From: Candidatus Heimdallarchaeum aukensis
Lineage (GTDB): Archaea > Asgardarchaeota > Heimdallarchaeia > Heimdallarchaeales > Heimdallarchaeaceae
Assembly (NCBI GenBank): GCA_021513695.1
Contig: CP084166.1
Coordinates: 2,336,001-2,400,000 of the forward strand
DNA length: 64,000 bases
Direction: 5' to 3'
Shown here piece after piece: positions 17,656 to 37,293 of the stretch; within the stretch, counting starts at the first letter, position 1, and every line of letters begins with the position of its first letter. The notes beneath the pieces were generated by a model. The model had not been told where the DNA came from, made no database searches, and worked only from the letters and a program-made list of their open reading frames with translations. Made by a program: the position numbers and the translations under genes.

Positions 17656-17703
17656 TGGTTTGGTTCTAAAAAAAGATAAATGAAAAAAAATGGTGTGTAA
17701 TGT

Positions 17704-19488
17704 ATGTCCGAAAAAGAAAATCAAGAAATAGTGGACGAATATGAACAAGAACTTGTGAAAAAAGAAGATGATTCATCAAAAAAGAAAAAAGTAAAGAAGG
17801 CTAAAGTTAAAAGAAAAAGTAAAAAACCAAAGAAAAAATTCAAACTTAGAAAAGTAAGGTTTACAAAGTATTCTTTAGCTATGACCTTGCTATTTCTCAT
17901 AGTTATCGTTCCACTGTTTATTGGTTTAGTTGGATTAGGTGGAAGAAGTGTAAAATTTTCCATCTACAACACCGGTTGGGATGGTCTTTCCACTGTATAT
18001 AATACATTACAAGCTGAAAACAAATATGAAATATCAAACGGAATGTCAAGTTTAACTATTTTAAATAGATTGAATAGCAGTGGAGTTCTCGTAGTTATCG
18101 GACCAACAACAAGTTACAACTTTGCTGAGACAATTAGTCTCGTAACCTTTCTGGTAAGAGGAGGAAGTTTGATAGTTGCTGACGACTTTGGTTCAGGAAA
18201 TAAAATATTCGAACCGCTTTGGAACGTTATTGCAACCTATGACTCTCTTGTATCTTTAGGACTTGTTCCTTCTTTAACAGATATATTCTTCGGAAATCAA
18301 AGTGCACCATCAAATGTTACATCAGTTGAAGATTTAGCTGGTGCAGCAATTTTTGAGATGCTAGCAGGAATGTTAAAAGCAATAGGTTTTAATCAAACGG
18401 TATTAATGGATGCAGGAAGTAATTATGGTGGAGTAAGTTCTCAACCGTTGTTAAAGGATACAAATCCAGATAACCCCTTAACTGCTGGAATTACAAAGGG
18501 AGTTCAAATGGAATTTGGTACGGTATTAAGTGTTAAAATCAATAACTCTCGATATAATCCATCCACAGGACGTTATGAGTGGTATACAGATTGGGTTCCC
18601 TTGCAGCCTTTGTCTATAAATGTCACAATTGAAGGGGGAGAGTATGGAAATCTTGAGCCAATTTTCATTGAAGATGTGATGTTACCTTTTCTCTCGTTTT
18701 TCACAACTACGACATCGTGGATGGAGTCGAATTTTAGAGATGCACTTACTGGAGAAGCAGTTCCCAATGAAGGAGAATGGGGAAACACTGCCTTTGCCCC
18801 TATTTTGTCAATACCAATAGGTAGGGGAAAAATAGTTATGATTGGAGACCCTGATATATTCATAAATAAATGGATAGAAGATACAGAAAATAATGATAAC
18901 TTGCAATTTTGTCAGAATTTGTTCAATTATGTAACCGAAAATATGGTTGCAAATACAACAAGTGGAAAAATACCTATAATATTTGATGAAGGACATACAC
19001 AATATAAATTCTATAGTCCTGCTCTGGTATCAACCATTTTAATGAGGTTGATTACTGAAATGTCCATGTATCCACTTTATTCACCTTTTGTTCCTATCAT
19101 GTTTGCTGTTATAGCATATCCCCTTATCCCAAAAGCTAGACGATTGGCCCCTGTATTATGGACTAGATACAGAGGAGAAAGAGGAAGGTCACGATTTGAA
19201 CGCGAAATAAAAAGAATATTAGAAACTGGAAGTTACAGTGAAGCAGTAGGTTTACTTTATAGGTCCATGTTACGGGGAGTAAGAAAAGTAGATACCTCTG
19301 CCGCAAGTTCACCTAAATCTTTGGCAGATTTCTTTATTTCAAGGGGATACCCCCTAAAAAGAGGAGCGTTGGTAAGTGAATTCGAGCGAATTGATCGCTA
19401 TTTACAGAGACCAAAGTTGCTCCCACAATCTGAATTTGAAAAAATGTTGCAGTTTATCAAGAATTTAATTGATACTCTGCCTAAATAG
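17704..19488 (+). CDS. DUF4350-like membrane protein (module 2) with Lys-rich N-terminus
   Basis: N-terminal poly-K segment, TM, then 'TGWDGLSTVYNTLQAENKYEIS...GVLVVIGPTTSY...FLVRGGSLIVADDFGSGN' (DUF4350-like); second TM near the C-terminus. Confidence 0.55.
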   Translation: MSEKENQEIVDEYEQELVKKEDDSSKKKKVKKAKVKRKSKKPKKKFKLRKVRFTKYSLAMTLLFLIVIVPLFIGLVGLGGRSVKFSIYNTGWDGLSTVYNTLQAENKYEISNGMSSLTILNRLNSSGVLVVIGPTTSYNFAETISLVTFLVRGGSLIVADDFGSGNKIFEPLWNVIATYDSLVSLGLVPSLTDIFFGNQSAPSNVTSVEDLAGAAIFEMLAGMLKAIGFNQTVLMDAGSNYGGVSSQPLLKDTNPDNPLTAGITKGVQMEFGTVLSVKINNSRYNPSTGRYEWYTDWVPLQPLSINVTIEGGEYGNLEPIFIEDVMLPFLSFFTTTTSWMESNFRDALTGEAVPNEGEWGNTAFAPILSIPIGRGKIVMIGDPDIFINKWIEDTENNDNLQFCQNLFNYVTENMVANTTSGKIPIIFDEGHTQYKFYSPALVSTILMRLITEMSMYPLYSPFVPIMFAVIAYPLIPKARRLAPVLWTRYRGERGRSRFEREIKRILETGSYSEAVGLLYRSMLRGVRKVDTSAASSPKSLADFFISRGYPLKRGALVSEFERIDRYLQRPKLLPQSEFEKMLQFIKNLIDTLPK

Positions 19489-19539
19489 AATAATGTTTCA
19501 AAAAATAAAAACAAAAAAAGAAAAGGAAAGTGAAAAAAA

Positions 19540-20541
19540 ATGAGTGAAGAAGAAAAACCGGCAAAACCGGCTAAAGGAAAAGCACAAACCGAAGCAGTGG
19601 TAACTCCAAAAGATATCAAGAGAGTTTGGTCTGAGATCTATGCTGAATTAAAACGTGTAATTATAGGTAAACTAGACGTACTGGAAGATCTCTTTATTGC
19701 TCTTCTAGCAAGAGGACATGTGCTGCTTGAAGGTGTACCTGGTGTTGCAAAAACCGTCATGGCTAAAAATTTTGCTGCTACCCTTGGAGCTGAATTCAAA
19801 AGAGGACAATTTACCCCAGATTTACTTCCAAGTGACGTTGTAGGTACTACAATATATGATCCTAAAGCAGGAACATTCAAAATGAGAAAAGGACCTATAT
19901 TTACAAACATCTTCTTGGCTGACGAAATTAACAGAAGTCCTCCAAAAACCCAAGCTGCATTACTTGAAGCAATGGCTGAAAAACAAGTCACAGTGGAAGG
20001 AACTACATTCAAGCTTGAGCCACCTTTTTTGGTAATTGCAACTCAAAACCCTGTAGAACAAGAGGGAACTTACCCATTACCAGAAGCACAAGTAGATCGT
20101 TTTATGTTTAAACTGATAGTTGACCTACCTTCGCCAGAAGAAGAAATAGAGATAATTGATCTTTCACACAAGCATGCTTTTCGCACAGTTCGCAGAATAA
20201 CTACTCCTATGACCATCATCAGAATGATAGAAACTGTGGAGAAAAGAATCTATGTACATGAAGATATTATGGCTTATATCAGAGATATTACTGTCGCAAC
20301 TCGTACTGATCCACGATTATTACTTGGTGGTTCTCCAAGATGTAGTATCGCGCTGTTAAATGCTTCAAAAGCTGTAGCTGCAATGAACGGTAGAGATTAC
20401 GTAATTCCTGATGATGTTAAACGAATAGCAAAAATAGGCGCAGCTCATCGATTGCAGATGAAACCGGAAGCAGAATTGGAAGGTACCACTGGAAGTATGG
20501 TTATGGACGACATCTTGCGCAATTTACCAGTACCAGTATAA
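19540..20541 (+). CDS. MoxR-family AAA+ ATPase (module 2; paralog of 6217..7158)
   Basis: 'LLEGVPGVAKT', 'FKRGQFTPDLLPSDVVG', 'GPIFTNIFLADEINRSPPKTQAALLEAMAE', 'LVIATQNP...PLPEAQVDRF'. About 60-65% identical by eye to the module 1 MoxR. Confidence 0.9.
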   Translation: MSEEEKPAKPAKGKAQTEAVVTPKDIKRVWSEIYAELKRVIIGKLDVLEDLFIALLARGHVLLEGVPGVAKTVMAKNFAATLGAEFKRGQFTPDLLPSDVVGTTIYDPKAGTFKMRKGPIFTNIFLADEINRSPPKTQAALLEAMAEKQVTVEGTTFKLEPPFLVIATQNPVEQEGTYPLPEAQVDRFMFKLIVDLPSPEEEIEIIDLSHKHAFRTVRRITTPMTIIRMIETVEKRIYVHEDIMAYIRDITVATRTDPRLLLGGSPRCSIALLNASKAVAAMNGRDYVIPDDVKRIAKIGAAHRLQMKPEAELEGTTGSMVMDDILRNLPVPV

Positions 20542-20551
20542 AGTTAATTAG

Positions 20552-22000
20552 GTGATTACAATCTTTACACGAAGAGGAGGATACCTGATATTCTTTGGTA
20601 TTGTAATGATTAGCGTAGGCTTTGCACTTGCAGGTTTCCTAGCTCTAAATAATATACTTGAATCATTTGGAGCACATCCAGTGCCTGAAACATCAACAGA
20701 AGGCCCTCAAGGAACAGGTTTAATGGATCTTTTACATTTCTACCTTTTAGATTCGACTCTAATATGGTATTTCATCATTTTAGGTGTTATGCTAATATTT
20801 TCCGTTATGCTTGGTTTACCTTTCTATAGACTCGGTGCAAACCCTGAATCTATAGAAATAAAAAGAAAAGTAGCTAAAGCAAAAGCTTTTGCAGGAGATT
20901 ATGTGTATATAGAAGTGACAGTAAGAAACAGATCTGTAAACCAGCTTCCCCACGTAGAAATTTACGATGCAATTCCAGAAGTCTTTGACTTAGTGTTAGG
21001 CGAAAATTTCATTATTACACAGCTGAATCCAAAGGAAACAGTTACATTTGGATATGTAGTTCGGATACCAATTAGAGGATTGTTCAATATTGGACCAACT
21101 AAAGTTATAATCAAAGATAGAATGGGATTCTACGCTACAGAAGGAGAAATTAAAACAAAGACGGAGATATTAGTTTATCCAAGCTATGAAGATATTAGAA
21201 AAATGGAAATGATAGGCAAAAAACGTCGTCTAGGTGTAATTTTTGGAATGCATAGAACTAAAGTTAAAGGAATGGGAGACGATTTCGCTGGAATTAGACA
21301 GTATCAAACAGGAGATCCATTTAAATTTATTGACTGGAAAAGCGTTGCACGTTCTGGGAAAATGATGGTTCGTGAATTCGAAGCAGAGCAAAATATTCGA
21401 GTAATTATCATGATCGATGCCTCTGCAAGTATGGGTGCTGGGCTACCTAGAAACACTAAGTTAGAATATGCTATTCGAAGTGCAGTGTTACTAATGCATC
21501 TTGCTTTCGAAAAACACGATATGGTTGGTTTGTGTGTTTATGATGATGAAGTTAGAACATGGATTGATCTAACCAGTTCTAGAAATAGACTCTTTGCGTT
21601 TTTGGAGGCTTTAGCCTTAGTAAAACCAAAAGGGGAATCAGATCTAGAAAAAGCTATGGATTATGCAATAAAGAGAGTACGAAGAGCATCCTATATAGTT
21701 ATTTTGTCTGATTTAGAGTCTAATCCACAAAAAATAGTTTCAGCAATTAGGCAAGCGCGGGGACGGAAACACCAAGTAACAGTTATAAGTCCATTTGGAC
21801 CTTGGTTTGAGATTGTATCTCAGCAATTGAGCCCCATAGAGCAACTAATTGGTTATGCTATGGTTGAAAAACAGATGGGTGAAAGATATAGAATGTTTAA
21901 GGCTATAAGAAAATTCGATGCTACCACTGTTAATGTTGGACCAGATGATTTCTTACCTACAATTATGGCTCAGTTCAGAAGGATACAAAGGAGGGGATGA
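20552..22000 (+). CDS. DUF58 protein (vWA-like), module 2
   Basis: N-terminal TMs, 'FAGIRQYQTGDPFKFIDWKSVARSGKMMVREFEAEQN', then 'VIIMIDASASMG' (vWA MIDAS-like DxSxS). Confidence 0.85.
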   Translation: MITIFTRRGGYLIFFGIVMISVGFALAGFLALNNILESFGAHPVPETSTEGPQGTGLMDLLHFYLLDSTLIWYFIILGVMLIFSVMLGLPFYRLGANPESIEIKRKVAKAKAFAGDYVYIEVTVRNRSVNQLPHVEIYDAIPEVFDLVLGENFIITQLNPKETVTFGYVVRIPIRGLFNIGPTKVIIKDRMGFYATEGEIKTKTEILVYPSYEDIRKMEMIGKKRRLGVIFGMHRTKVKGMGDDFAGIRQYQTGDPFKFIDWKSVARSGKMMVREFEAEQNIRVIIMIDASASMGAGLPRNTKLEYAIRSAVLLMHLAFEKHDMVGLCVYDDEVRTWIDLTSSRNRLFAFLEALALVKPKGESDLEKAMDYAIKRVRRASYIVILSDLESNPQKIVSAIRQARGRKHQVTVISPFGPWFEIVSQQLSPIEQLIGYAMVEKQMGERYRMFKAIRKFDATTVNVGPDDFLPTIMAQFRRIQRRG

Positions 22001-23648: not shown

Positions 23649-25880
23649 TTATGTACGTTTGTACATGAATCTTTCCCAATTGCTGGCTGTTGGGATTTCT
23701 GGAGGTAATCCTTTTCTTTCTCTGATACTGGCAATGACTTGTTCCTCAAGGTTGGAAGGAACAGGCTCGAAACCTAAAAATTGATAACCAAAGAAGGCTT
23801 TTCCTGAGCTCTCACTGCGGATTTCATCTGCTAAGTGAATTGTCTCTGCAGTGGGTACTTTACCTTTGAGTTTTGTATTTTCACCTTCTGTTGTCATGTC
23901 AAGTATCATTCCCCTATGTTGGGTGAGTAATGCGGTTATATTTCCTATGAAGTCATTTGGAACTTTGATGTCGATTTGTAGTATAGGCTCTAAGAGTTGA
24001 GGGTTAGCAGAAATGAAAGTAGTGTGAAAACCAGCTAAACTCATCTGGAAGATTTCGCTAAAACCAGTATGAGCAGGATCAACGTGAACTACGGCATCAG
24101 TTATTACAAATTTAGCACCCATTAAAGGTTCTTTTGCTAGTGTGGCTCCATGTGCAAAATCATGAAAGACTTGAATGATATATTGCTGAATGTTTTCTAA
24201 ACGCTGAACACCTTTGGTGTTATCCACTAAAATATTAGTGTCAGCAATAGCCCAAATTCTTCTTGCTTCTCTAGCATCCCAACCAGCTTCTTCGTGAAGA
24301 ATGGCTGCACGCTCTTTTCTATCTTGATCCATATTCACTTTACCAGATTTAATAAGTTCGATTGTTTTTTCATCCAAAGGTTCAACATGAACTTCAAATC
24401 TGTTATGACCATTTGGTGATTTAGCAAAGACATCAGGACCACGAGTAGTTGGTTTTTCTCTGTAGACGATAATAGGATCACTTACCTCAATGTCAACTTG
24501 CTCTCTGATTCTAGTAACTAGAATTTCAATCTGTAAGGGGTCAATTCCCGAGAGAACATAGGTTTTAGACTCTTCATCATGACGAAAAGCAGCGGTAGGA
24601 TCCGCCATAATCCACTTAGATACGACTTCACCTAGTTTAGCAATATCTTGTGGATCTTTTGGTTTGATAGTACGACTAACAACAGGTTCAGCAACATAGG
24701 ATATTTCTTCAAATGGATGAACTTTGCCAATGTCTTTAGCGTTAATGAAAGTCTCACCAGCAGGACAAATAAAACCGAATATAGCAAAAAGATTTCCTGC
24801 AGGAATTTCATCTACATCAAGGATATCAGTAATCTCCATAACACCTAAACGTTTAATGTTAGTTTTGTCTTTCTTACCAACTAAATAAAGGGTGTCTGAT
24901 TTACGAAGTGTACCACTATAAACACGGCCGATTAAAGTAGGACGTTTAGATTTTGGTTCAATGAAAATCTTGGTAATCATACCCATTAAAGGACCATTGG
25001 GGTCAGCATTAAGTAATGCTTTTCCTTGGGGACTTTCAAGATCTCCAGACCAAATGCGTGGGATCTTAACTCTTTGTCCTTCTTCAGGGTTGGGTAAGTG
25101 CTTAATAACCATCTCAAGTAAAGGTTCCTCCAAAGGAAGATTTTTACGTAACCAGTCTTTATCATTTTGATTATACTTTTCAAAGATATCTTGAGGTTTG
25201 ATCTTTAAGCGTTTTAAAGTGGACATGTTGAAAGCCCAGCCATCTTTGGCTGAACCAATTGCTACAGAGTCATCAGTGAACCTAACACGCCACTGTTTAG
25301 CTAACTCTTTAGGTGCATTTGCCTCAATAAGTTTGTTTACTTCTGTAATAATAGCATCAATTCTGCTAAAAACTTGATCAGGTTTCAAACGAAGTTCAGA
25401 AATAAGACGGTCTACTTTATTAATGTATAAAACAGGTTTACACATTTCACCAATAGACAAACGAATATTAGTTTCAGTTTGAGTCATAACTCCCTCAAGA
25501 GCATCCACTAAAAGAATAACACCATCAGAACCTCGAAGAGCTCGACTAACCTCACCAGTAAAACTAATGTGACCAGGAGTGTCGTTAATTTCCATCAAAT
25601 AACGTTTAGTCTCACCATTTTCGTCGGTATACTCGTAGTCAAGAAGAACGACAGAAGTAAAAATAGTAATACCACGTTCTTGTTCCTCTTGATCTGAATC
25701 CATCATGACTTTTTTACCTGCATCTGCGTCAGACATAAGTCCAGCTTTTCTTAATAGATAGTCGCTTGTTGTTGTTTTTCCATGATCTATGTGAGCTGCG
25801 ATACTGAACACTCTTCTTAGTTCATTGGGGTGCTCTTTGATCATTTGTCTAATATCGTCAGCATTTTTTACTTTAACCAT
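23649..25880 (-). CDS. translation elongation factor 2 family GTPase (aEF-2 or EF-2 paralog)
   Basis: G1 'AHIDHGKTT', G3 'DTPGH', G4 'NKVDR'; five-domain EF-2 length (743 aa). Domain IV loop reads 'HVDPAHTGFSE' rather than the canonical 'HxDAIHRGxxQ'. Confidence 0.85.
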   Translation of the reverse strand: MVKVKNADDIRQMIKEHPNELRRVFSIAAHIDHGKTTTSDYLLRKAGLMSDADAGKKVMMDSDQEEQERGITIFTSVVLLDYEYTDENGETKRYLMEINDTPGHISFTGEVSRALRGSDGVILLVDALEGVMTQTETNIRLSIGEMCKPVLYINKVDRLISELRLKPDQVFSRIDAIITEVNKLIEANAPKELAKQWRVRFTDDSVAIGSAKDGWAFNMSTLKRLKIKPQDIFEKYNQNDKDWLRKNLPLEEPLLEMVIKHLPNPEEGQRVKIPRIWSGDLESPQGKALLNADPNGPLMGMITKIFIEPKSKRPTLIGRVYSGTLRKSDTLYLVGKKDKTNIKRLGVMEITDILDVDEIPAGNLFAIFGFICPAGETFINAKDIGKVHPFEEISYVAEPVVSRTIKPKDPQDIAKLGEVVSKWIMADPTAAFRHDEESKTYVLSGIDPLQIEILVTRIREQVDIEVSDPIIVYREKPTTRGPDVFAKSPNGHNRFEVHVEPLDEKTIELIKSGKVNMDQDRKERAAILHEEAGWDAREARRIWAIADTNILVDNTKGVQRLENIQQYIIQVFHDFAHGATLAKEPLMGAKFVITDAVVHVDPAHTGFSEIFQMSLAGFHTTFISANPQLLEPILQIDIKVPNDFIGNITALLTQHRGMILDMTTEGENTKLKGKVPTAETIHLADEIRSESSGKAFFGYQFLGFEPVPSNLEEQVIASIRERKGLPPEIPTASNWERFMYKRT

Positions 25881-26126
25881 AATTTTTCACCATTATTTAA
25901 CACTAGTACTGAGCATCATGTACTAATTGCTTTTCATTAAGTTGTGCGAACTTTCAAAATTTGAATTATAAAGTTAATGATTATATAGTTCTTTCCTTTA
26001 GTATACTAGAGGGCATCAATATTTAAACGTTCAAATTATGTTTCTCCTCTTATAAATCAAGAATTGATTTTTATTATTTTTCTTCCTTAACAATAAGAGT
26101 TAAGAATCTTTTTTTTATTTTAACTT
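25881..26126. promoter_or_regulatory. divergent AT-rich intergenic region (promoters for the EF-2-like gene and the deaminase-arfC-cofGH operon)
   Basis: 246-bp non-coding gap between divergent genes with several TATA-like boxes (e.g. 'tttatataa', 'ttttattttaac'). Confidence 0.25.
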
Positions 26127-27281
26127 GTGCAGACTCTATATGCTCCTAAAGCTCTAATTGGTGAAAATTTAGAACTAAAAAATCATGTTCTAATCACTAT
26201 CTCTGAGGATGGTATTATTCATTCTTTAGACACTGAAGTAGATGATTATTCTGCAGATACAGTTTTGTCTCAAGACACTTTAGTTCTTCCCAGTTTTATT
26301 AATATGCATACTCATATTGGTGATTTTTTACTCAAAGATCAAGGTTTTGGATTATCTTTAAGAGAAGTTGTTGGAAGAAATGGAGTTAAACACTCCTTTC
26401 TCAATAAACTGAGTGATGAAAGACTACAATTTTCCTTAGAACACGCTCTCTCTCTTCTTATTTCAAATGGTTATTCTACCTTTGTAGACTTTAGAGAAGG
26501 GGGAATTAAAGGTGTTTCAATGCTCGGGAAAGTTTTAGAATCTTTTCTTATTCGAGGAATTGTTCTTGGTCGTCCTTCAGCTGATGATGATATAGATAGT
26601 TTAGTTGAATATGTGGATGGTTTTGGGTTCTCTGATGTTTTTTCAGTATATGAAAAAGAAGAATTAATTGAAAACTTAGAAAAAGCTCTTTCTTCGAATT
26701 CTGAACTTTTGTTATCAATTCATGTTGCTGAAACAAAGGAATTAGTGGAAAAGTCTATAGCGGAAATAGGAAAAACAGACTTAAATTACGTAATAGAAAA
26801 TCTCTCACCTTCTTTTATTGTTCATTGCAATTATGTTACAGAGGACAATCAATTTCTTAAAATTAAAGAATGTGGAATAGGTGTTGTTTGTTGTCCTTTG
26901 ACAGCGTCATATTTTGGTCTTCAGTTTCCACCGATTGTTAAATGCTTGGAATATAATATTCCTCTCGCCTTGGGAACAGATAACATAATGATTGCTGATG
27001 TTAATCCTTTTTTCCTTATGCGTTTTACTCTACTAACTCTATCATCTAAAGGAGTTTTTCTGTCTCCTCAAACTATTTTAAAAACACTAACCGTTAACCC
27101 AGGGTTAATGCTTAATCAGAAAATAGGTCAAATTTTTCCAGGTTATAAAGCTGATTTCATAGGCGTAAACCTATCATCACCCAATCTTATCCATTCAAAT
27201 GATGTCTATAAAACTCTAGTTTTTAGAACTTCAGTTAAAGATATAAACTTCCAAATGTTTGAAGGGAGAAGAATAAAATGA
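26127..27281 (+). CDS. metal-dependent amidohydrolase of the nucleobase/nucleoside deaminase subfamily (MtaD/guanine-deaminase/chlorohydrolase-like)
   Basis: 'LVLPSFINMHTHIGD' (HxH), 'LSIHVAETKELVE' (HxAE), 'IVHCNYV', 'LALGTDN'. Together these are the metal-ligand set of amidohydrolase deaminases. Confidence 0.75.
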   Translation: MQTLYAPKALIGENLELKNHVLITISEDGIIHSLDTEVDDYSADTVLSQDTLVLPSFINMHTHIGDFLLKDQGFGLSLREVVGRNGVKHSFLNKLSDERLQFSLEHALSLLISNGYSTFVDFREGGIKGVSMLGKVLESFLIRGIVLGRPSADDDIDSLVEYVDGFGFSDVFSVYEKEELIENLEKALSSNSELLLSIHVAETKELVEKSIAEIGKTDLNYVIENLSPSFIVHCNYVTEDNQFLKIKECGIGVVCCPLTASYFGLQFPPIVKCLEYNIPLALGTDNIMIADVNPFFLMRFTLLTLSSKGVFLSPQTILKTLTVNPGLMLNQKIGQIFPGYKADFIGVNLSSPNLIHSNDVYKTLVFRTSVKDINFQMFEGRRIK

Positions 27282-27970
27282 ATAAGGAGCTTTTAAAACC
27301 TAAAGTAACAATTAATGTTGCTTGTTCGCTCGATGGGATAATAGCTACAAATAAAGGTCCTTTGGATCTATCTAATGAAGAAGATTGGTTACGTGTTCAT
27401 GATTTAAGAAATAATTCTGATGCCATTTTAGTAGGTATAAACACAATAATTAATGATAACCCTGGGCTGAAGATTAAAAGAGTTGATTTAACTCCTCCGC
27501 ATCCCTACAGAGTTGTTCTTGATAGCAATGCTAGAATACCTTTAGATGCTAAAGTTTTAAGAGAACAAGAAGTTTTTCCTACTATCTTATTTGTATCTAA
27601 TATCACTGAATCAAAATTTCTTGAACTTAAAGAAAAAGGAGTATCAGTTGAAGTTGTAAAAGAAATAGAAAAAGGTTTTCTAGATCTTGAGATGGTACTA
27701 GACATCCTATACAGAAAATATAATGTTAGAAATCTGATGGTTGAAGGTGGAGGAAAAATAATTACCAGTTTTGTAATCCATAAACTTGTCGACGAAATGA
27801 TTATTTTTTATGCACCAATTTTAGTAGGTTCTATAGATGGAGTTCCACTATTTCCAAAAAAAGCAAAAGAAAAAATATTAGAGCATGATAGAATTAAAAA
27901 TATCATTCACGAAAGAATAGGAGATGGCTTTCTCATCAAAATTCAGTATGGAGAAAACAAATGTCAATAG
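27278..27970 (+). CDS. arfC: 2,5-diamino-6-ribosylamino-4(3H)-pyrimidinone 5'-phosphate reductase (archaeal ArfC / RibD C-terminal domain type)
   Basis: 'VTINVACSLDGIIA', 'DAILVGINTIINDNPGLKIKR', 'RVVLDSNARIP', 'LMVEGGGKIITSFVIHKLVDEMIIFYAPILVG' are a classic RibD_C reductase pattern; 230 aa, like archaeal ArfC. ATGA overlap with the upstream gene. Confidence 0.75.
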   Translation: MNKELLKPKVTINVACSLDGIIATNKGPLDLSNEEDWLRVHDLRNNSDAILVGINTIINDNPGLKIKRVDLTPPHPYRVVLDSNARIPLDAKVLREQEVFPTILFVSNITESKFLELKEKGVSVEVVKEIEKGFLDLEMVLDILYRKYNVRNLMVEGGGKIITSFVIHKLVDEMIIFYAPILVGSIDGVPLFPKKAKEKILEHDRIKNIIHERIGDGFLIKIQYGENKCQ

Positions 27971-29019
27971 AAGAATATCTCAACTTTATAGAAAATGAAC
28001 AGTGTGATCTTCTTGTTAAAGCAAATGAAATAAGGTCTAAAAATTATTCAAATCAAGTAACTTTTTCAAGAAATTACTTTGTTCCTGTAACTCGACAGTG
28101 TAGAAACAATTGTAGATACTGCAGTTTTTCAAATTCAGATGTCTCAAGTTGGGTGAATCTCTCACAGTTTCAACTACACCTTGAAACAGCTAAAAAAAAC
28201 AATTGTTTAGAACTTTTACTAACAATGGGCGAAAAGCCAGAAGAGCGCTACGAAAGCGCTAGAAATTTTCTCGAATCTAATAATTTTAGTTCTTCTGCTG
28301 AGTATGTTGCTCGCTTGTGTGAATTAGCAATAGAAAGAAAACTTCTTCCTCATTCAAATTTAGGAGTATTAAACTACGAAGAATTATCCTTGTTAAAACC
28401 AGTTAATGCAAGTATGGGTCTTATGTTGGAAAGTTCAAGTACTCGATTATTACAGAAAGATATGCCTCATTTCAACTCTGTTGGAAAAGATCCTGAAAAA
28501 CGATTAAAAACTATTGAAAATGCAGGTAAATTGAAGATACCTTTTACTACTGGCATTCTTGTTGGTATTGGAGAAACATGGGAAGAACGTGTTCAGAGTC
28601 TTCTAGATATCGCCTACTTAAGCAAAAAATATGACCATATCCAAGAAGTAATAGTTCAAAACTTTAATCCTCAAAGTAACACATTAATGAAGAATCATCC
28701 TCCTCCAACTGAAGAAGACTTTTTACTAACTGTCGCTTTAGCACGACTTATACTCCCTTCACATGTTAGTATTCAAGTTCCACCAAATCTAAATAAACAG
28801 AGAATAGTGAAAGCTTTAACCTACGGTGCTAATGACTTAGGAGGAATGTCTCCTGTAACATCAGATTATATTAACCCTGATGAACCTTGGCCCAACGAAT
28901 ATGAACTTAACCAATACTTAAAACAAGAAAATTTTACTCTAATTCAAAGACTCCCTGTATACGCACGATACATCAAGTATTTAAGTAGTGAGTTGAAAAA
29001 CATCATTAATCAATTGTAA
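27961..29019 (+). CDS. cofG: radical SAM FO synthase subunit CofG-like (7,8-didemethyl-8-hydroxy-5-deazariboflavin synthase subunit 1); alternative MqnC
   Basis: 'VTFSRNYFVPVTRQCRNNCRYCSFS' closely resembles the CofG signature (TxxCRNxCxYCxF); followed by a TIM-barrel-like radical SAM body. Overlaps the arfC stop. Confidence 0.65.
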   Translation: MSIEEYLNFIENEQCDLLVKANEIRSKNYSNQVTFSRNYFVPVTRQCRNNCRYCSFSNSDVSSWVNLSQFQLHLETAKKNNCLELLLTMGEKPEERYESARNFLESNNFSSSAEYVARLCELAIERKLLPHSNLGVLNYEELSLLKPVNASMGLMLESSSTRLLQKDMPHFNSVGKDPEKRLKTIENAGKLKIPFTTGILVGIGETWEERVQSLLDIAYLSKKYDHIQEVIVQNFNPQSNTLMKNHPPPTEEDFLLTVALARLILPSHVSIQVPPNLNKQRIVKALTYGANDLGGMSPVTSDYINPDEPWPNEYELNQYLKQENFTLIQRLPVYARYIKYLSSELKNIINQL

Positions 29020-29025
29020 GGAGAA

Positions 29026-30153
29026 TTGATAAAAATAAAACTGACTCCCAAGGTTGATACTTTTTTAACATTAGAAGAAATTATTTCCAAATCTTCAGCT
29101 GAAATAGAATATGTTTACTCCCTTCTTAAAAAAAGAGGAAAAAATCTTTTTAATCTAATAAAAGAAGCAGATGAAATACGCTTTAAATTAGTTGGAGATA
29201 AAGTGAGTTTTGTTGTTAATTACAACATAAACTTCACAAATTACTGTGTTGGTTCATGTAAATTTTGTTCGTTCAAAAATAGTAACAACTCGCTAATAAA
29301 AGGATACAGAATGGATACTGATAAATTCAAAGAATCAGTAGAAGATGCTATTAAGAAAGGAGTAAGTGAAATTTGTATCCAAGGGGGGTTGGATCCTACT
29401 TTTACGTATGAGAATTATTTAGAACTAATAAAAATCATACGAAGAATTTCTCCTACTGTCCATATTCATGCATTTTCACCTTCTGAAATAGCGTATATGT
29501 CACACATTAGTGAAGAAAATGTTGAAGATGTATTTAGAGAGTTAAAGTCTAAAGGACTGAATTCATTTCCTGGTACTGCAGCAGAAATATTAAATGATGA
29601 GGTTAGAAAAGTTATTTGCCCAGAAAAAATAACAACACAAGAATGGATAGACATTGTTATTACAGGGCATAACCTCGGAATACATTCCTCTTCAACTATG
29701 ATGTATGGTCACATAGAATCTTTACTAGATGAAGCAAAACACTTGGTTATCCTAAAGAAAATTCAAGAAGAAACAGGAATGTTTACAGAGTTTGTACCAT
29801 TGCCTTTTATTCATCATTATACTCTACTCTACAATAAATACGGTGCCCAACCAGGAAGTACGGGATTACATGACTTAACTATATTTAGTTCAGCAAGAGT
29901 ATATTTTGATAGTAGTATTCCTAATATTCAAGTATCTTGGCCTAAACTTGGCCTAAAATTTGCTCAATTTTCCTTGTATGCTGGTGTCAATGATTTAGGG
30001 GGAACACTTTTCCATGAGAATATTTCTAAAAGTGCTGGAGCAAGATACGGAGAATTCACATCTGTTGATGATTTTGTTAGAATAATCGCAGATGCTGGAA
30101 GAATTCCTGTTCAAAGAAATACGATATATAAGGAAATACTATCTTATGAGTAA
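29026..30153 (+). CDS. cofH: radical SAM FO synthase subunit CofH-like (subunit 2); alternative MqnE
   Basis: 'NYNINFTNYCVGSCKFCSF' (CxxxCxxC) with a C-terminal 'GVNDLGGT' block shared with CofG; paralogous to the preceding gene. Confidence 0.65.
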   Translation: MIKIKLTPKVDTFLTLEEIISKSSAEIEYVYSLLKKRGKNLFNLIKEADEIRFKLVGDKVSFVVNYNINFTNYCVGSCKFCSFKNSNNSLIKGYRMDTDKFKESVEDAIKKGVSEICIQGGLDPTFTYENYLELIKIIRRISPTVHIHAFSPSEIAYMSHISEENVEDVFRELKSKGLNSFPGTAAEILNDEVRKVICPEKITTQEWIDIVITGHNLGIHSSSTMMYGHIESLLDEAKHLVILKKIQEETGMFTEFVPLPFIHHYTLLYNKYGAQPGSTGLHDLTIFSSARVYFDSSIPNIQVSWPKLGLKFAQFSLYAGVNDLGGTLFHENISKSAGARYGEFTSVDDFVRIIADAGRIPVQRNTIYKEILSYE

Positions 30154-30262
30154 GAAAACCTATTTTGTTTTTCTTCTTATTGTATATTTTCTTTCTACTA
30201 TCAACGTTCAAAGAGTAAAATAACCTTTTTATGTAATGATTTCCACTTTAGAATAGAAGTCG

Positions 30263-31123
30263 ATGTCACCTAGCAAAACAAAAGAGCCTATAAATATATT
30301 TAAAGCGCTTTCTAATCCAATTAGAAGAAACCTAGTTAGTTTTATAGGTGACAAAACAAGATATGGCGATTCTGTTTCTTTTACTCAAATTCAACAAGAA
30401 TTTAATATGAAAGTAGGAACTCTATACCACCATCTTGACTCATTAGGGGACTTGATTACACAAGATGAGAAGAAAAAGTATTTACTTACTCCCAAAGGAG
30501 TTCAAGCTTATAATTTAATAGAAGATAAGATCGATGCATTTGCAAAGGAAATGCCCACATTTGGACCTTTTTCTTTTTTACATAGAGTTTTTTTACGTAA
30601 TTACTTCGAAAAAATTCAGTCTGATCCCTTACGCTTTTTAGGTATTTCACTATTTATTTTTTCTGGGTTGGTGACTGGTTCGTATTTCTTATCTTATGGG
30701 CCAATCTTCATATTTCCCACTTTAATAAGTCCACAATTCTTAACCCCTGTTCTATTTGTTCTATCGGCATTAGTTATTTATTTACTCATAGAGCTTTTTA
30801 CTTCTCTTTTTTTTAGGAAAACAACAGACAAACTAGCCTTATTTCAAGCTGTTCTCTATTCTCAAATCCCTTTGTTTATCTTTTCAATTATTGAGTATTT
30901 TGTTATGGATGTAGACTACTCTGTTTCACCTTTAGACATCTCTATTTGGCTTTTCTTGCTCTTAATTTTCATTCAGCTATTATTCTTAGGAGTAATTATT
31001 GAAGCACTGATTGTTATTAAAGGATTAAGAATGGAGAAAGCAGGTTTGATAGCACTATTGGTAATCTATTTGCTTAATCTTTTCTCATTTTTATTATTAA
31101 GGGGGTTGGTGGTGAGCATATGA
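30263..31123 (+). CDS. membrane-tethered winged-helix (ArsR-like) transcription regulator
   Basis: N-terminus 'IFKALSNPIRRNLVSFIGDKTRYGDSVSFTQIQQEFNMKVGTLYHHLDSL' (ArsR-type HTH), followed by about 5 TM segments. Confidence 0.5.
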   Translation: MSPSKTKEPINIFKALSNPIRRNLVSFIGDKTRYGDSVSFTQIQQEFNMKVGTLYHHLDSLGDLITQDEKKKYLLTPKGVQAYNLIEDKIDAFAKEMPTFGPFSFLHRVFLRNYFEKIQSDPLRFLGISLFIFSGLVTGSYFLSYGPIFIFPTLISPQFLTPVLFVLSALVIYLLIELFTSLFFRKTTDKLALFQAVLYSQIPLFIFSIIEYFVMDVDYSVSPLDISIWLFLLLIFIQLLFLGVIIEALIVIKGLRMEKAGLIALLVIYLLNLFSFLLLRGLVVSI

Positions 31124-34100
31124 AAAAGTTACAAAATTTTCGAATTAAGTTCACTAACCTAGTATTCGAAAAAATTCGAAATAAAGCTTTTTCAAGAGAG
31201 AAAAGTATACTCTTTTTGAGAGCGAGTAAGTTGAAAAGTGCATTATATTCTAATCAGATTCCAATAGCCCCATCATCTCTGAAACGATACATTGCACTTT
31301 TACTCCTCTCACTTATGCTTTTCTCTTCTCCTCTTCTAGCTCGTGGATTGACCTATGATGGTAGTCCACGAGCTCTTTCTTCCATAAATGTTTCTTCAAC
31401 ATTATACCAAGAAAAATTGAGTTTTATAACAGGAAAAAATGATAGTTTATTGGCTAGTTTGTCATTAAAAGGAGGAAACATGGATTTTGATATGGAAATC
31501 CCATCATCAATTTTATACAAAATAAAAGATCTCTCCCTTATTGTTTCAAACCAAACTTTCTTTCAAGATGTTTGGACTAATCCTTTATGGAGATATCCAA
31601 CTGGGCTGAATATATTGTTTACAATTAATTCACAAAATCCAACTGTTGTAGAAAATGCTATTCATGATATAATGACAATCATAAACAATCAATATAATGT
31701 AAGCTCAATTGTTTATTCTATTAATTCTTTTAATGAAGGAGAAACTAAAGTTTCGATCTTTTCATTCATTGACTTCTTTTTACAGAAAGAAATATTTACT
31801 GATATTTTTGGAATTAATGAGACTGTAAGTAATGGAAATTTTGTTTCTCTTTTTCATTCTCAATTATTAAAACGTCCATCTGTTTATGCCTTTGGTTTTT
31901 ATCTATTTCTAAGAAATGGTGAGATTCAATATCTTACTCGAAAAGCGTTTGTGTCCATAAAAGAGAAAATTCCTGTGGTGAACAATGAACGATTGCTTGA
32001 ATTAAGCTCTATACTCGGAACTTCACTTATGCCAAATACTAATGCATTGTATTCTAATATCGATATTAGATTCCCATTTTTAGCTAATTTTACATTAGTA
32101 AGACCCTTTCCAACAAATGTTGCCCCCAAATTGTCTGGGCTCTTTCAATGGGTGCTAAAAACTCCCTTATTTGTAATTTTTCCCACCTTTAATGCTTGTT
32201 TGCATTATTACTTATCCGTTGAAGATAGTGCAAAATTTCCAAGAGTTATCATAACTAACTCTTATTCTGATACTTTAATTGAAGAAAATGGTATCTTCAA
32301 AATGAATTATGAAGTAGAAAATATAGGGAACACTATCGCTTATAACACTACCTTGTTCTTTCCAATTCCTCGTGAACTTGAGTTCTATTCAAAAGAAAAC
32401 CTTTCTGTTCCCGTTCTAAAGGACGAAATCGAAATAAATTCGAGTTTTAGTAATGAAATTAAATTGAAAATTGATATTCCTTATCTATTAAAAGAGACAG
32501 ACTTACTTCTGCGAATATTAGGTTGGTATCAAAATGTTTCAACTAACGCATTAGAAAGATGGAATGATACTACTCAGATTCCACTATATGGAACTGAATT
32601 AACACTGATCTCAGAATATGGGTTTCCATCTGATCTTGTTGACTTATTAGTAAATTTCATTATTCCATATCTTATGAAAAACTATGATACAGTTCTAGAG
32701 CTATATAATGATCTAGATACTGTGGTCGAGATATTATATCTGTCACTTATTTCTACTTATAATACAACTTTCCACGCTTTCTATGATATGAAACCAATAT
32801 TTAATTACATATCAGATGATTTTCAAATAATTCACACTTCTTTTGGAAGCTTTCTTTATTGTGTAATTCCAGAAATTGGTGTAAATGAAACTATTAGAGT
32901 AAATTGGTCAATTGAAAATATTCCAACAAAATATGATCGAGTAGGAATATTTAACCTAACATCTGAAACCAATGATGATCAGGTTATAAAGAAATATGCG
33001 ATATTTCAAACAAAGAATACAGATTATCATACTCTTCTCATATCTAAATATTCAGAAACTGACAGTACAGGACGGATATTGAGTGATTACGATGAAATAA
33101 CGAATTCATTCATTAATATTGGTACCCGATTTAAGTATTCGAACATAAATGGGGATGAATATTATGGTTTGACAAACGGTATAAATATTCAAATTGGGGA
33201 TGATGAGGCCATCATAGAAAGTAAATTGACTACATCTAGTTCTGTATATTCTGTTGGGGATAATATATTTTTAACATTAAATATAACTAATAGAGGACAA
33301 ATACCTGCATATGATATTAATATTGAAATTGCCAACATCAAACTAGATTTCCTATGGCAACCTAGCGACATTATAAAATTAAAGAGTTTAACGATTGATT
33401 CGATTGCTCCTAACGAAAGTTTTGTGAGGGTAATTCAATTAAGAGCAAACAGCTATATAGGTTTTAATACTTATATTGCGTTTATTAGTTTTGTTTCTGA
33501 CAAAGATCAACATGGTGTTGAAGTAACTAATCCTTGGACAAATCAAACTTCAGTGTGGACATACGGTGGTGAAACAAAGAATATTGTTACTTCTACATTA
33601 GTTTCTGGATTGCTTATTCCTTCTCAGTCATTTGTGAATAAATCCAGACCTAGTTTTCCTTTACCTGAGATAGTGTCAAATGTTAGTTATTCACTCTCTC
33701 CCGCCAATTCTACTGTAACTGTACAATATGAAATAAGCAATACTGGCTTATCAGAAGCAAACGTTTCCATCACACAATTTCTCGATAATTCCACCTATTC
33801 TTCCCTAGAATCGGTCGAAATTAGAAAAAGTGAAGTCAGTTATAATTATGTAGCTAGTAGTTACCTAACTTATATTAAATTAAATCTGATAGAGCAAGTT
33901 ACTCTTCTTCCTGGAGAAAAAGTAACAATAACAGAGACTTATTCTGTTAAAAACACTAAATTAGTTCTTTCACCTTTACAAATAGAGTATTATTCACTTT
34001 ATGAGATAATGACAACTGACTTCCAATCCGACTACACTGATTTTGGTGAAGAAAGCACAGTTTTTGTTAGCGAGTATTTACACTTCAGCCCACTAACCGC

Positions 34101-34320
34101 AACCGAAAGCGATCAAGCCAAATTCAAATGGTCTTCGTATTCTGACAACATTGATATTGATTTACCACCAATAGAAGAGGAACAAACAACGAAATTTGTA
34201 GTTACTTTTCCTGAAATCCACTTTATGTTTATACTCGTGAGCGTTGGCACAGCAACAGTTGTAGTAAGTATATTTTCGATTATAAGTGCAATATTAAGAA
34301 AAAGAAGAGGATATATGTAA
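31120..34320 (+). CDS. large (1066 aa) secreted/surface protein with N-terminal signal anchor and C-terminal TM plus basic tail
   Basis: ATGA overlap with the upstream regulator. Hydrophobic 'YIALLLLSLMLFSSPLLA' near the N-terminus. C-terminal 'FMFILVSVGTATVVVSIFSIISAILRKRRGYM'. No recognised catalytic motifs. Confidence 0.5.
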   Translation: MKKLQNFRIKFTNLVFEKIRNKAFSREKSILFLRASKLKSALYSNQIPIAPSSLKRYIALLLLSLMLFSSPLLARGLTYDGSPRALSSINVSSTLYQEKLSFITGKNDSLLASLSLKGGNMDFDMEIPSSILYKIKDLSLIVSNQTFFQDVWTNPLWRYPTGLNILFTINSQNPTVVENAIHDIMTIINNQYNVSSIVYSINSFNEGETKVSIFSFIDFFLQKEIFTDIFGINETVSNGNFVSLFHSQLLKRPSVYAFGFYLFLRNGEIQYLTRKAFVSIKEKIPVVNNERLLELSSILGTSLMPNTNALYSNIDIRFPFLANFTLVRPFPTNVAPKLSGLFQWVLKTPLFVIFPTFNACLHYYLSVEDSAKFPRVIITNSYSDTLIEENGIFKMNYEVENIGNTIAYNTTLFFPIPRELEFYSKENLSVPVLKDEIEINSSFSNEIKLKIDIPYLLKETDLLLRILGWYQNVSTNALERWNDTTQIPLYGTELTLISEYGFPSDLVDLLVNFIIPYLMKNYDTVLELYNDLDTVVEILYLSLISTYNTTFHAFYDMKPIFNYISDDFQIIHTSFGSFLYCVIPEIGVNETIRVNWSIENIPTKYDRVGIFNLTSETNDDQVIKKYAIFQTKNTDYHTLLISKYSETDSTGRILSDYDEITNSFINIGTRFKYSNINGDEYYGLTNGINIQIGDDEAIIESKLTTSSSVYSVGDNIFLTLNITNRGQIPAYDINIEIANIKLDFLWQPSDIIKLKSLTIDSIAPNESFVRVIQLRANSYIGFNTYIAFISFVSDKDQHGVEVTNPWTNQTSVWTYGGETKNIVTSTLVSGLLIPSQSFVNKSRPSFPLPEIVSNVSYSLSPANSTVTVQYEISNTGLSEANVSITQFLDNSTYSSLESVEIRKSEVSYNYVASSYLTYIKLNLIEQVTLLPGEKVTITETYSVKNTKLVLSPLQIEYYSLYEIMTTDFQSDYTDFGEESTVFVSEYLHFSPLTATESDQAKFKWSSYSDNIDIDLPPIEEEQTTKFVVTFPEIHFMFILVSVGTATVVVSIFSIISAILRKRRGYM

Positions 34321-34746: not shown

Positions 34747-37293
34747 GTGAAATGTCCCGATTGTAGTAAAACCTTAACGATTGAAGAAAAAAGTCACACA
34801 TTTACTTTTCGTTGTCAATTTTGTGGATACTACTCAAAAATTGTTGGTGCTAAAAATGTTGAAGAAGCTTATAAGAAGACTGTGGAGAGGGCTATAGCTC
34901 AAAACAATATAATCCAAATATCAAAAAAAGAATCAGAACAACTAGTTAAAAGATTAACTCTTCAAGAGAAAATTAATCTGATTAAAAAAGGGAATGGTGA
35001 TCCTTCTAATCTCCCAAATCCCTTAGTTAAATTGTTAAGACATCCTGACTTAGAACCAGTTTACTATTTATTCTTGGAGCAAAAGTCTCCAGCTTTAGCT
35101 AAAGATTCCCTTTTTCTTCCATCTGAATTAAGTTCCTTTCTTAAGAAAAAGGGTTTTGTTCAATTATATGAATTTCAAAAACAATCGTTCAAAAAGATAA
35201 CAGAAGGAAAAAATGTAGTTATTGTAGCCCCAACTGGAACAGGTAAAACCGAGGCTTTCCTTTTTGCTATATTAACAGAAATTTGGGAATCTCATCCTCA
35301 TCCTCTATTACGAAATGGTCCTTATGCAATCTTTATCTATCCAAATAAAGCTTTAGCTAGAGATCAACAAAAGAAGATAAGCGAATATAGTTCAAAATTG
35401 GGAATAACCTGTGAAATTTTTGATGGCGATACTTCACAATCCAAAAGAAAAAAGATTTTGGAAAATCCTCCTGATATTTTAATAACAAATCCTGATATGC
35501 TACACTATCATATGCGAAAACCTAGTTTTAGGAGTCTGCTTTATCCGGTAAAGTTTGTAGTTATAGATGAAGTTCATGTGGCCGTAGGAGCATTTGGAAC
35601 AAATCTTTATTTTATAATTAGGCGATTAAGTCGATTGACAAAAAATAAATTACAATTTATTGCTGTTTCTGCCACAATAGGTAATGCCGTTGAGTTTACT
35701 TCTAAATTATTTAACAGCCCTTCTATGGATATAGTAGAAGTAACAGATGCACGAAAAGCACCTACTCATCTTATGATTGTGTATCCATATGGAACAAGCC
35801 AGTATACACTTACAGGAGACATTACTCGATTACTTGCTTCATCTGGTAGAAAAATCTTAGTTTTCCAGAATAGTCATAAAAATGCAGAAATTATTAATCT
35901 CCTTCTCAGCCAGAGAATGAAAATTGACAGCGCAGTGCATAGAGCGGGTCTCACAAAGAAATATAGAGCACAGGTAGAAAAAAGATTTAGAGATAATGAA
36001 CTAGATGTGTTAGTTTCAACGCCTACTTTAGAATTAGGAATAGATATTGGCAGTGTAGATTCTGTTGTATCTTCAATTGTTGACTTTACAAGGTTTACTC
36101 AACGATTAGGTAGAGCAGGAAGAAAAGGACAAGAATCAATAGGTATTCTTATTCTTAGGGACAATGACCCGATCTCTACCTATTATGCTTTTTACCCTGA
36201 AGACTATTTTGAAGACATAAGAAAAGGATTTATTGAACCTAAAAATGAACTCATTGCCTACTACCAAATATTATCCGCTGTGATGGATAAACCTCTAAAA
36301 GAAAATGAATTTCAAGAGTTTAAACACATTATTTTGAATCTTGTAAATGATGGTTTAGTTAAATTAGCACCAAAAGGAGAATTTCAAATAGCTGATTATT
36401 CAAAGGTTAGAAAAGTTTTGTCAGTATTTAACTTAAGAGGAATCGGTGATACTATCGTAATTGAAGATATCAATGGCAAAGAACTAGGTAGTCGTTCAAT
36501 GCCAATGGCTGCAAGAGAGTTACATCCGGGGGCAATATATTTACTAGGCGGAAAATATTATCGCTCTCTGTCCTTTCAGTATGATCCGAGATTAGGTCGT
36601 GGAAGAGTTAAAGTTCAAAATATTCCGCCGCTTAATAAAAAAACTACTGCTTTACGTTTTGCAATGCCTGAGATTATTAAAATTCATGAATTAAAGAAAA
36701 TTACTGGAACAGAAGCAATTTACTGTGATCTACGAATAACAGAAAATGTAATTGGTTATTCACTTTCTGATATCTTTACTGATGAGAATGTTGAAAACAT
36801 CCCGTTAAAAGAACCTATTCAGTATTCTTTTGTAACTAAAGGATTTATGTTTGTGATGCCAAAACCTCAAAAAATCTTCAGAAATTACCCCGATAAGCAT
36901 GAAGATGAACTAGCCACTGGCACATTTCACGCAATTGAACATGTTTTAATCGAATCAAGCGAAATGATAACTGGTGGAGGAAGTAATGAAATAGGAGGTA
37001 TTTCAATGGGACATTCTGGAGCAATTTTTGTGTATGATGGAGCTAAAGGAGGTTCTGGTCTTTCAAAGCTACTTTTTGACCGATTAGATGAAGCGCTTGA
37101 TCGTTCATTAAATATCCTTAAGAAATGTACATGTAAAACAATGGACGGTTGTCCTAGATGTACCTATAGCTATCAATGTGGAAACAATAATTTCCCACTG
37201 AACAAGTATGGTGCTATTGAATCTCTGACACTTGTTAAAAAATCTAAATTAAAAATCATTGAAGATGTGAGCGGTTATAATCCTCTGATCTAG
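34747..37293 (+). CDS. DEXH-box helicase with N-terminal zinc ribbon and C-terminal DUF1998/MZB domain (YprA/MrfA-DrmA-like)
   Basis: Motif I 'VAPTGTGKTEAF', II 'VIDEVHV', III 'SAT', VI 'QRLGRAGRKGQ'. C-terminal 'CTCKTMDGCPRCTYSYQCGNNN' (DUF1998 four-Cys knuckle). N-terminal 'CPDCS...CQFCGY'. GTG start. Confidence 0.8.
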   Translation: MKCPDCSKTLTIEEKSHTFTFRCQFCGYYSKIVGAKNVEEAYKKTVERAIAQNNIIQISKKESEQLVKRLTLQEKINLIKKGNGDPSNLPNPLVKLLRHPDLEPVYYLFLEQKSPALAKDSLFLPSELSSFLKKKGFVQLYEFQKQSFKKITEGKNVVIVAPTGTGKTEAFLFAILTEIWESHPHPLLRNGPYAIFIYPNKALARDQQKKISEYSSKLGITCEIFDGDTSQSKRKKILENPPDILITNPDMLHYHMRKPSFRSLLYPVKFVVIDEVHVAVGAFGTNLYFIIRRLSRLTKNKLQFIAVSATIGNAVEFTSKLFNSPSMDIVEVTDARKAPTHLMIVYPYGTSQYTLTGDITRLLASSGRKILVFQNSHKNAEIINLLLSQRMKIDSAVHRAGLTKKYRAQVEKRFRDNELDVLVSTPTLELGIDIGSVDSVVSSIVDFTRFTQRLGRAGRKGQESIGILILRDNDPISTYYAFYPEDYFEDIRKGFIEPKNELIAYYQILSAVMDKPLKENEFQEFKHIILNLVNDGLVKLAPKGEFQIADYSKVRKVLSVFNLRGIGDTIVIEDINGKELGSRSMPMAARELHPGAIYLLGGKYYRSLSFQYDPRLGRGRVKVQNIPPLNKKTTALRFAMPEIIKIHELKKITGTEAIYCDLRITENVIGYSLSDIFTDENVENIPLKEPIQYSFVTKGFMFVMPKPQKIFRNYPDKHEDELATGTFHAIEHVLIESSEMITGGGSNEIGGISMGHSGAIFVYDGAKGGSGLSKLLFDRLDEALDRSLNILKKCTCKTMDGCPRCTYSYQCGNNNFPLNKYGAIESLTLVKKSKLKIIEDVSGYNPLI

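Follow-up and report, generated by a model that had tools for sequence, protein, structure and literature searches.

An amidohydrolase encoded with ArfC and FO synthase in Candidatus Heimdallarchaeum aukensis is a divergent member of the family predicted to supply the archaeal riboflavin/F420 deaminase

Which protein removes the 2-amino group from the pyrimidine precursor of riboflavin and F420 in archaea? The question is raised by a 64,000-nt stretch of Candidatus Heimdallarchaeum aukensis (GenBank assembly GCA_021513695.1, contig CP084166.1, positions 2,336,001 to 2,400,000 of the forward strand; referred to as the window), in which an amidohydrolase gene directly precedes genes for an ArfC-type reductase and for CofG and CofH, the two radical SAM subunits of FO synthase. 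The deaminase is one of the last archaeal riboflavin/F420 biosynthesis steps without a proven enzyme, and Archaea lack orthologs of the deaminase domain of RibD (Rodionova et al., 2017). A sequence-only reading of the window had put the amidohydrolase forward as a candidate for this elusive step. The functional idea was supported by gene linkage, active-site residues and fold; it is not new, since Osterman, Overbeek and Rodionov (2010) had proposed a candidate family, PyrD, whose genes frequently cluster and co-occur with those for riboflavin synthesis. With a probability of about 0.78, the amidohydrolase is predicted to be the archaeal pathway deaminase, its predicted substrate being 2,5-diamino-6-ribitylamino-4(3H)-pyrimidinone 5'-phosphate.

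The locus is composed of the following features (window coordinates, strand):

25881..26126, +, presumed promoter region, a 246-nt AT-rich spacer between a divergent EF-2-like gene and the operon
26127..27281, +, amidohydrolase of NF005552/PRK07213 (PyrD candidate), 384 aa, GTG start
27278..27970, +, ArfC-type pyrimidine nucleotide reductase, 230 aa, RibD_C domain only
27961..29019, +, CofG, radical SAM subunit of FO synthase, 352 aa
29026..30153, +, CofH, radical SAM subunit of FO synthase, 375 aa, TTG start
30154..30200, +, T-rich tract 3' of the cofH stop (sequence reading)

The four genes had been described as co-directional with overlapping or abutting ends, and both the open reading frame (ORF) map and the junction sequences bear this out. 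The amidohydrolase stop overlaps the arfC start (ATGA at 27278-27281), arfC and cofG overlap by 10 nt (cofG ATG at 27961, arfC TAG at 27968-27970), and the cofG stop (29017-29019) is followed by a 6-nt spacer with GGAG and the cofH TTG at 29026. The window is AT-rich (G+C approximately 31%), and the four ORFs are far beyond chance (E-values of 1e-43 to 1e-134 in hidden Markov model searches). The GTG start of the amidohydrolase matches the N-termini of its homologs. The overlaps suggest that the four genes are translationally coupled. They are presumably also co-transcribed, and the T-rich tract is likely the end of the transcription unit.

The two radical SAM proteins were assigned with NCBIfam models. 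CofG scored 425.9 bits against NF004884 (cut-off 209) and 403.5 bits against TIGR03550 (cut-off 213). CofH scored 446.4 bits against TIGR03551 (cut-off 374.1) and 429.8 bits against NF005609 (cut-off 426), and carries the Pfam domain CofH_C (PF19288). Both CxxxCxxC triads of the sequence-only reading were located on the translations, at C47/C51/C54 in CofG (nt 28099-28122) and at C74/C78/C81 in CofH (nt 29245-29268). Its preference for CofG/CofH over MqnC/MqnE also held: the fourth gene reached 318 bits for MqnC (cut-off 428.1) and 306.8 bits for MqnE (cut-off 434.55), the third 69 and 48 bits, and both assignments were rejected.

The second protein is a stand-alone RibD_C reductase. PF01872 is its sole Pfam family (148 bits), it passes the domain model TIGR00227 ribD_Cterm (153.3 bits, cut-off 150.15), and the eubacterial RibD model aligns to the reductase part only (model positions 143-338). 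Its best model is TIGR01508, at 162.4 bits under the cut-off of 186.45; the Hermod ArfC ortholog from the same gene cluster passes this model with 198.7 bits. A Pfam domain of the cytidine deaminase (CDA) family is absent from all four operon proteins.

The operon would thus both supply and consume the pyrimidine precursor of the deazaflavin FO. ArfC would reduce 2,5-diamino-6-ribosylamino-4(3H)-pyrimidinone 5'-phosphate to the ribityl form, and the amidohydrolase would hydrolyse the 2-amino group using one active-site metal ion and a glutamate proton shuttle, yielding 5-amino-6-ribitylaminouracil 5'-phosphate. After dephosphorylation by an enzyme not encoded in the operon, CofH and CofG would condense the product with tyrosine to give FO; the same intermediate would also feed riboflavin synthesis. 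The order of steps was taken from published work on Methanocaldococcus jannaschii, which places reduction before deamination in archaea.

The family of the amidohydrolase was determined by profile searches. Amidohydro_1 (PF01979, 83.8 bits) is its only Pfam family, in agreement with the earlier claim that it is unrelated to the bacterial RibD deaminase of the CDA type. The best model is NF005552/PRK07213 'chlorohydrolase' with 240.3 bits (residues 3-377 against model positions 3-376 of 382), which leads by a wide margin, the next-best model reaching 74 bits. Members from different lineages scored as follows against NF005552:

Methanotorris igneus, member WP_013798840.1, 583 bits
Methanobacteriaceae, 443 bits
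Bathyarchaeia, 348 bits
Nitrososphaerota, 333 bits
Jord, 318 bits
haloarchaea, 286-297 bits
Loki, 267 bits
Heimdall, 225-242 bits

NF005552 being the best model in each lineage, the members form one family with the Heimdall copies at its divergent edge. The Heimdall copy is 32% identical to a methanogen member. In a profile search of 1.84 billion cluster representatives, the best 150 matches all exceeded 260 bits. A protein with 97% identity comes from a Candidatus Heimdallarchaeaceae metagenome-assembled genome, and more distant relatives were found in Hel-, Loki- and Bathyarchaeota, Methanomethylicia and Nitrososphaerota.

The deaminase-type catalytic set HxH...HxAE...H...D, already noticed in the sequence-only reading, is complete on the translation (H61-T-H63, H199-V-A-E202, H233 and D285). 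All six of its residues (H61, H63, H199, E202, H233, D285) are invariant in 80/80 full-length relatives, as are the family-specific D66, K88, R123, E124, N286 and R367. The catalytic six are the set by which deaminases of the amidohydrolase superfamily work with a single metal ion and a Glu shuttle. An AlphaFold model of the protein was of high confidence (predicted local distance difference test, pLDDT, 93.8; predicted template modelling score, pTM, 0.93). Its best PDB matches in Foldseek were all COG0402 deaminases and chlorohydrolases (TM 0.83-0.88, identity 15-22%). They comprise deaminases of 5'-methylthioadenosine (MTA), S-adenosylhomocysteine (SAH) and adenosine, AtzA and TrzN, HutF, guanine deaminase and Vcz, an isocytosine deaminase. 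The last two kinds of enzyme remove the 2-amino group from a 2-amino-4-oxopyrimidine by hydrolysis, which is the chemistry of the riboflavin step, and the proposed reaction thus has a precedent in the fold.

None of the named deaminases provided an identity for the protein, all of their models giving 27-74 bits against cut-offs of 300-780. Guanine deaminase, 8-oxoguanine deaminase and SsnA were rejected at 29-42 bits (cut-offs 351-532), and HutF at a score far under its cut-off. DadD (NF005557, 52.8 bits against 522) and MtaD (NF012037, 34.8 bits against 779) were rejected likewise, so that the protein does not group with the MtaD, SAH or 5'-deoxyadenosine deaminases. These scores bear on a reading in which the amidohydrolase is a DadD/MtaD-type enzyme for 5'-deoxyadenosine, MTA or SAH that clears inhibitory 5'-deoxyadenosine arising from CofG and CofH. 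Such a role would suit the position of the Asgard gene two genes upstream of two radical SAM enzymes and the nature of the best solved relatives, which are SAH, MTA and adenosine deaminases (TM0936, 4gbd, 4f0r), TM0936 being the nearest by sequence (E = 6.6e-10). Identity to the solved deaminases is only 15-22%, however, NF005552 is by far the best model for every lineage's member, and the Nitrososphaerota operons described below have cofG and cofH nearby in one locus only (L054). This role is therefore considered very unlikely indeed.

For analysis of the gene neighbourhood, one genome per species was scanned with a 9-sequence alignment, by which 545 relatives were found and 80 loci kept. The loci (designated by L numbers) cover Heimdall, Jord, Hod, Hel, Loki, Thor, Hermod, Nitrososphaerota, Bathyarchaeia, Methanobacteriaceae, Hadarchaeales, Altiarchaeota and haloarchaea. 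Together with the window, 81 loci were counted; all ORFs were clustered unlabelled and recurrent clusters annotated afterwards. In this sample, whose loci are not phylogenetically independent and which is biased towards relatives of the query, arfC was present in 55/81 loci, always downstream and on the same strand, and was adjacent in 51 (median gap -14 nt). The GTP cyclohydrolase IIa/III gene arfA was found in 28/81, always immediately upstream (median gap -4 nt). Further upstream on the same strand were ribH (26 loci), ribB (25), bacterial-type ribE (18) and archaeal ribC (8). Both cofG and cofH lay within the flanks in 30/81 loci, nearly always 3' of arfC. The linkage to riboflavin genes, which the sequence-only reading had proposed to look for in other archaea, is thus conserved across archaea. 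No CDA domain was found in any of the neighbouring reductases across the loci (lengths at most 255 aa). Three operon layouts recurred (X, amidohydrolase or family member, here and below):

ribE-ribB-ribH-arfA-X-arfC, Nitrososphaerota
(ribB-ribC)-ribH-arfA-X-arfC, Jord, Hod, Bathyarchaeia and others
X-arfC-cofG-cofH, Loki, Thor, Hermod, Hod and Heimdall, including the window

The amidohydrolase adjoins arfC in all three. That arfC is kept as the neighbour through three different arrangements argues strongly for a shared pathway. It also bears on the possibility that the protein is a general deaminase of nucleobases or pterins (guanine, isocytosine, cytosine, pterin) which has no dedicated role in the pathway and whose linkage is a historical accident. 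Fold and chemistry do resemble such enzymes, and the gene stands alone in several euryarchaeal lineages, but overlapping linkage to arfC in 51/81 loci and three layouts is hard to explain by accident, and the guanine deaminase, 8-oxoguanine deaminase and SsnA models scored far under their cut-offs. We regard this possibility as extremely unlikely.

The riboflavin synthase encoded in these clusters differs between loci. Nitrososphaerota operons (L008, L028, L033, L041 and others) have a bacterial-type RibE (NF006767, 213 bits), and the archaeal RibC (TIGR01506, 222 bits) is found at the equivalent place in L002, L010, L021, L032, L054 and L073; its users are Jord, Altiarchaeota, some Nitrososphaerota and several unclassified loci.

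Gene order raises a further alternative, namely that the amidohydrolase is the pathway deformylase, an ArfB analogue hydrolysing the 5-formylamino group of the GTP cyclohydrolase III product. In 28 loci the gene stands precisely between arfA and arfC, where arfB would be expected from the order ArfA, ArfB, ArfC. Most clusters are without a recognisable arfB, and HutF, which hydrolyses a formimino group, is among the structural relatives. Eight clusters, however, hold a creatininase-family gene in addition to the amidohydrolase, inside or beside the riboflavin genes:

L002, 4544-5206
L003, 3376-4134, minus strand
L017, 5315-6235
L032, 9855-10604
L054, 11485-12225
L063, 14091-14894
L073, 8998-9675
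L080, 4880-5653

These genes resemble TIGR04448 and MftE and match the ArfB model NF033501 weakly. Their family includes BrbF, the proven AFRPP formamidase of Sinorhizobium meliloti, and from the sequence matches it is plausible that they encode archaeal BrbF counterparts, deformylase candidates where classical ArfB is lacking. With separate deformylase candidates in these clusters, deamination is left as the chemical step without a gene of its own. In L032 (ribB-ribC-ribH-arfA-X-arfC-creatininase-like), the presence of the creatininase-like gene means that every chemical step but deamination and dephosphorylation has its own gene. M. jannaschii likewise has a separate ArfB besides the PyrD candidate MJ0699 (Q58110), both the HxxE-type active site and the nearest folds point to ring-amine deaminases, and in the Asgard layout the partners of the gene are arfC and cofGH, with no arfA nearby. 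A deformylase is thus very unlikely. The Asgard layout, with arfC and FO synthase and without arfA, fits the preferred reading, an enzyme acting after the reductase.

In about 20 loci an MptA/FolE2-type GTP cyclohydrolase gene (TIGR00294, 247.6 bits; for example L031:6925-7821, minus strand) is divergent from X-arfC-cofG-cofH. The loci belong to Loki, Thor, Hermod and Hod and have no arfA nearby (upstream of the amidohydrolase in L009, L013, L014, L018, L020, L022-L026, L030, L031, L034, L036, L037, L039, L043-L045 and L050); the gene is absent from the window. This arrangement may reflect only shared regulation of GTP-derived cofactors; alternatively, the cyclohydrolase might supply the formamidopyrimidine intermediate. 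The Heimdall locus closest to the window is L001, which shares even the two genes following cofH. These encode a membrane protein with an N-terminal HTH_20/DUF7347 domain (window 30263-31123, plus strand) and a 1066-aa protein without family match (window 31120-34320, plus strand), and the synteny of both is conserved in L001:12058-16066.

A pathway deaminase could also act at another point, either ahead of the reductase on the ribosyl compound, which is the bacterial order, or on the ribityl compound once its phosphate has been removed. The sequence does not fix the state of the side chain, and the gene precedes arfC in every operon, although the order of genes in an operon says little about the order of reactions. 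The invariant K88, R123 and R367 are putative phosphate ligands. The M. jannaschii work cited above, which puts reduction first, makes an action elsewhere unlikely, and deamination of the phosphorylated ribityl compound is preferred.

The relation of the amidohydrolase to the published candidate was assessed from the literature and from gene order. Rodionova et al. (2017) stated of the PyrD prediction that it 'remains to be tested'. Pfeiffer and Dyall-Smith (2021) gave HVO_2483 and MJ0699 as that candidate and called for experimental confirmation. The SEED role 'Pyrimidine deaminase archaeal predicted' was found in the literature, and two 2026 reviews cover the archaeal deamination step and name no archaeal protein. 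In Haloferax volcanii, cofD is HVO_2479, the candidate HVO_2483, pccA HVO_2486 and asd HVO_2487. The gene order is cofD ... X-Usp-(one gene)-BirA-(one gene)-pccA-asd in Halogeometricum rufum (Haloferacaceae) and cofD ... X-Usp-BirA in Halogranum; the trio X-Usp-BirA is also conserved in Natrialbaceae and Haladaptatus. By the Haloferacaceae gene order, the family thus sits at the HVO_2483 position. One haloarchaeal and one methanogen member are 36% identical, the published value for HVO_2483 and MJ0699 being 34%, and the family is present in Methanocaldococcaceae, the member from M. igneus having the top NF005552 score. No Haloferax protein was among the best 120 matches in homolog searches seeded with haloarchaeal members, and the genes around the M. 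igneus member (RtcB, split transketolase, rpe, CTP synthase) offered no usable synteny with the MJ069x region. That the family is the MJ0699/HVO_2483 candidate is nevertheless well supported by indirect evidence. Our verdict is that the functional inference is well supported but repeats a published prediction, the window protein being a divergent member of the predicted family.

Several points weigh against assigning the deaminase function to the window protein. Its 240.3 bits are under the curated NF005552 cut-off of 294, which makes it a divergent member, and a divergent amidohydrolase could in principle have drifted in specificity. The gene is unlinked to riboflavin genes in Methanobacteriaceae, haloarchaea, Hadarchaeales and Methanotorris, so that most of the linkage evidence is drawn from Asgard and TACK archaea, themselves related both to each other and to the query. 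Identity with MJ0699/HVO_2483 was judged indirectly, from synteny and identity levels. No enzymology or genetics was found for any family member in the searchable literature. Finally, the check for the rest of the pathway covered the window: in profile tests, arfA, ribB, ribH, ribC/E and a creatininase-type deformylase were not found elsewhere in these 64 kb, nor were cofC/D/E in Pfam scans of the other ORFs of the window.

Taking these points together with the linkage, we consider it probable, if marginally less so than the assignment of the window protein, that the TIM-barrel family is the real archaeal riboflavin/F420 deaminase in place of the CDA-fold RibD/Rib2, and that with ArfC and FO synthase it makes up an Asgard deazaflavin-precursor module. 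The candidate was not discovered here but is strengthened by a much broader sample of 81 loci, with seven Asgard lineages and three operon layouts that are independent. What is added is the wide reach of the linkage, the X-arfC-cofG-cofH module found throughout Asgard archaea and the argument by elimination from clusters that also encode a separate deformylase candidate. The invariant residues provide targets for mutagenesis. If the prediction is true, the Heimdall protein or a relative closes the last unassigned chemical step of the archaeal pathway, the phosphatase aside. Public records still name the family 'chlorohydrolase', 'amidohydrolase family protein' or 'nucleoside deaminase', and a biochemical test would therefore correct thousands of them. 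For the window itself, this is an ordinary cofactor operon, such as Asgard genomes were already expected to carry. The sequence-only reading had called deazaflavin genes in an Asgard-type genome noteworthy in themselves; F420/FO biosynthesis genes have already been reported in Asgard archaea, Heimdallarchaeota included.

Other genes of the window were annotated as follows (coordinates, strand):

4156-9339 and 17149-22000, +, two similar modules of MoxR AAA_3 ATPase, DUF58 and DUF4129, the first additionally with DUF4350, and separated by very large ORFs (1036 and 1234 aa)
9437-10147, -, ThyX
23649-25880, -, EF-2/EF-G family protein, divergent from the operon, with the domain IV loop HVDPAHTG
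34747-37293, +, DEAD-box helicase with MrfA zinc-binding domain
39578-40138, archaeal pilin-like gene before the Ras-family GTPase
40194-40949, +, Ras-family small GTPase (PF00071, 148 bits; also Roc, Arf)
46300-47067, -, MptE-like 6-hydroxymethylpterin diphosphokinase
47057-48832, -, and 48999-50804, +, two divergent CLC chloride channels with CBS domains
53048-53530, -, PTPS (COG0720)
55273-57304, -, EtfB and EtfA fused to a 2x[4Fe-4S] ferredoxin domain

In canonical archaeal EF-2 the diphthamide site reads H-x-D-x-x-H-R-G, and the divergent EF-2-like protein may belong to the EF-2 paralogs known from Asgard archaea. The Ras-family GTPase is a typical Asgard 'eukaryotic signature' protein. 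With the MptE-like and PTPS proteins, the window also holds cofactor genes of the pterin branch.

Among known systems, the amidohydrolase is closest to the PyrD candidate family, with which it shares the family model (NF005552 best), the predicted role and clustering with riboflavin genes as the evidence. It differs in that the Heimdall copies, at 225-242 bits, are under the 294-bit cut-off and in that the Asgard layout X-arfC-cofG-cofH ties the gene to FO synthase instead of ribB/ribH. Among solved structures, TM0936, MtaD and DadD come nearest in sequence and rank with the nearest in fold, but their models give 35-53 bits against cut-offs of 522-779 and their genomic context is another one. 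Guanine deaminase, Vcz and 8-oxoguanine deaminase share with it the (beta/alpha)8 fold and the HxH, HxxE, H and D motifs, and they hydrolyse the 2-amino group of a 2-amino-4-oxopyrimidine ring, as is predicted for it; identity to them is 15-20%, and the curated models remain far under their cut-offs. The amidohydrolase family is further set apart by its invariant HTHIGD, K88, R123-E124 and R367, guanine deaminases having HxHxxQ at the position of HTHIGD, and by its expected substrate, a ribityl phosphate rather than a free base. The N-terminal domain of RibD and fungal Rib2 carry out the predicted reaction or one very close to it, Rib2 acting on the identical reduced substrate, with a cytidine deaminase fold as opposed to a TIM-barrel amidohydrolase. 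As these folds are unrelated, the archaeal enzyme would, if the prediction holds, be a non-orthologous replacement of RibD/Rib2.

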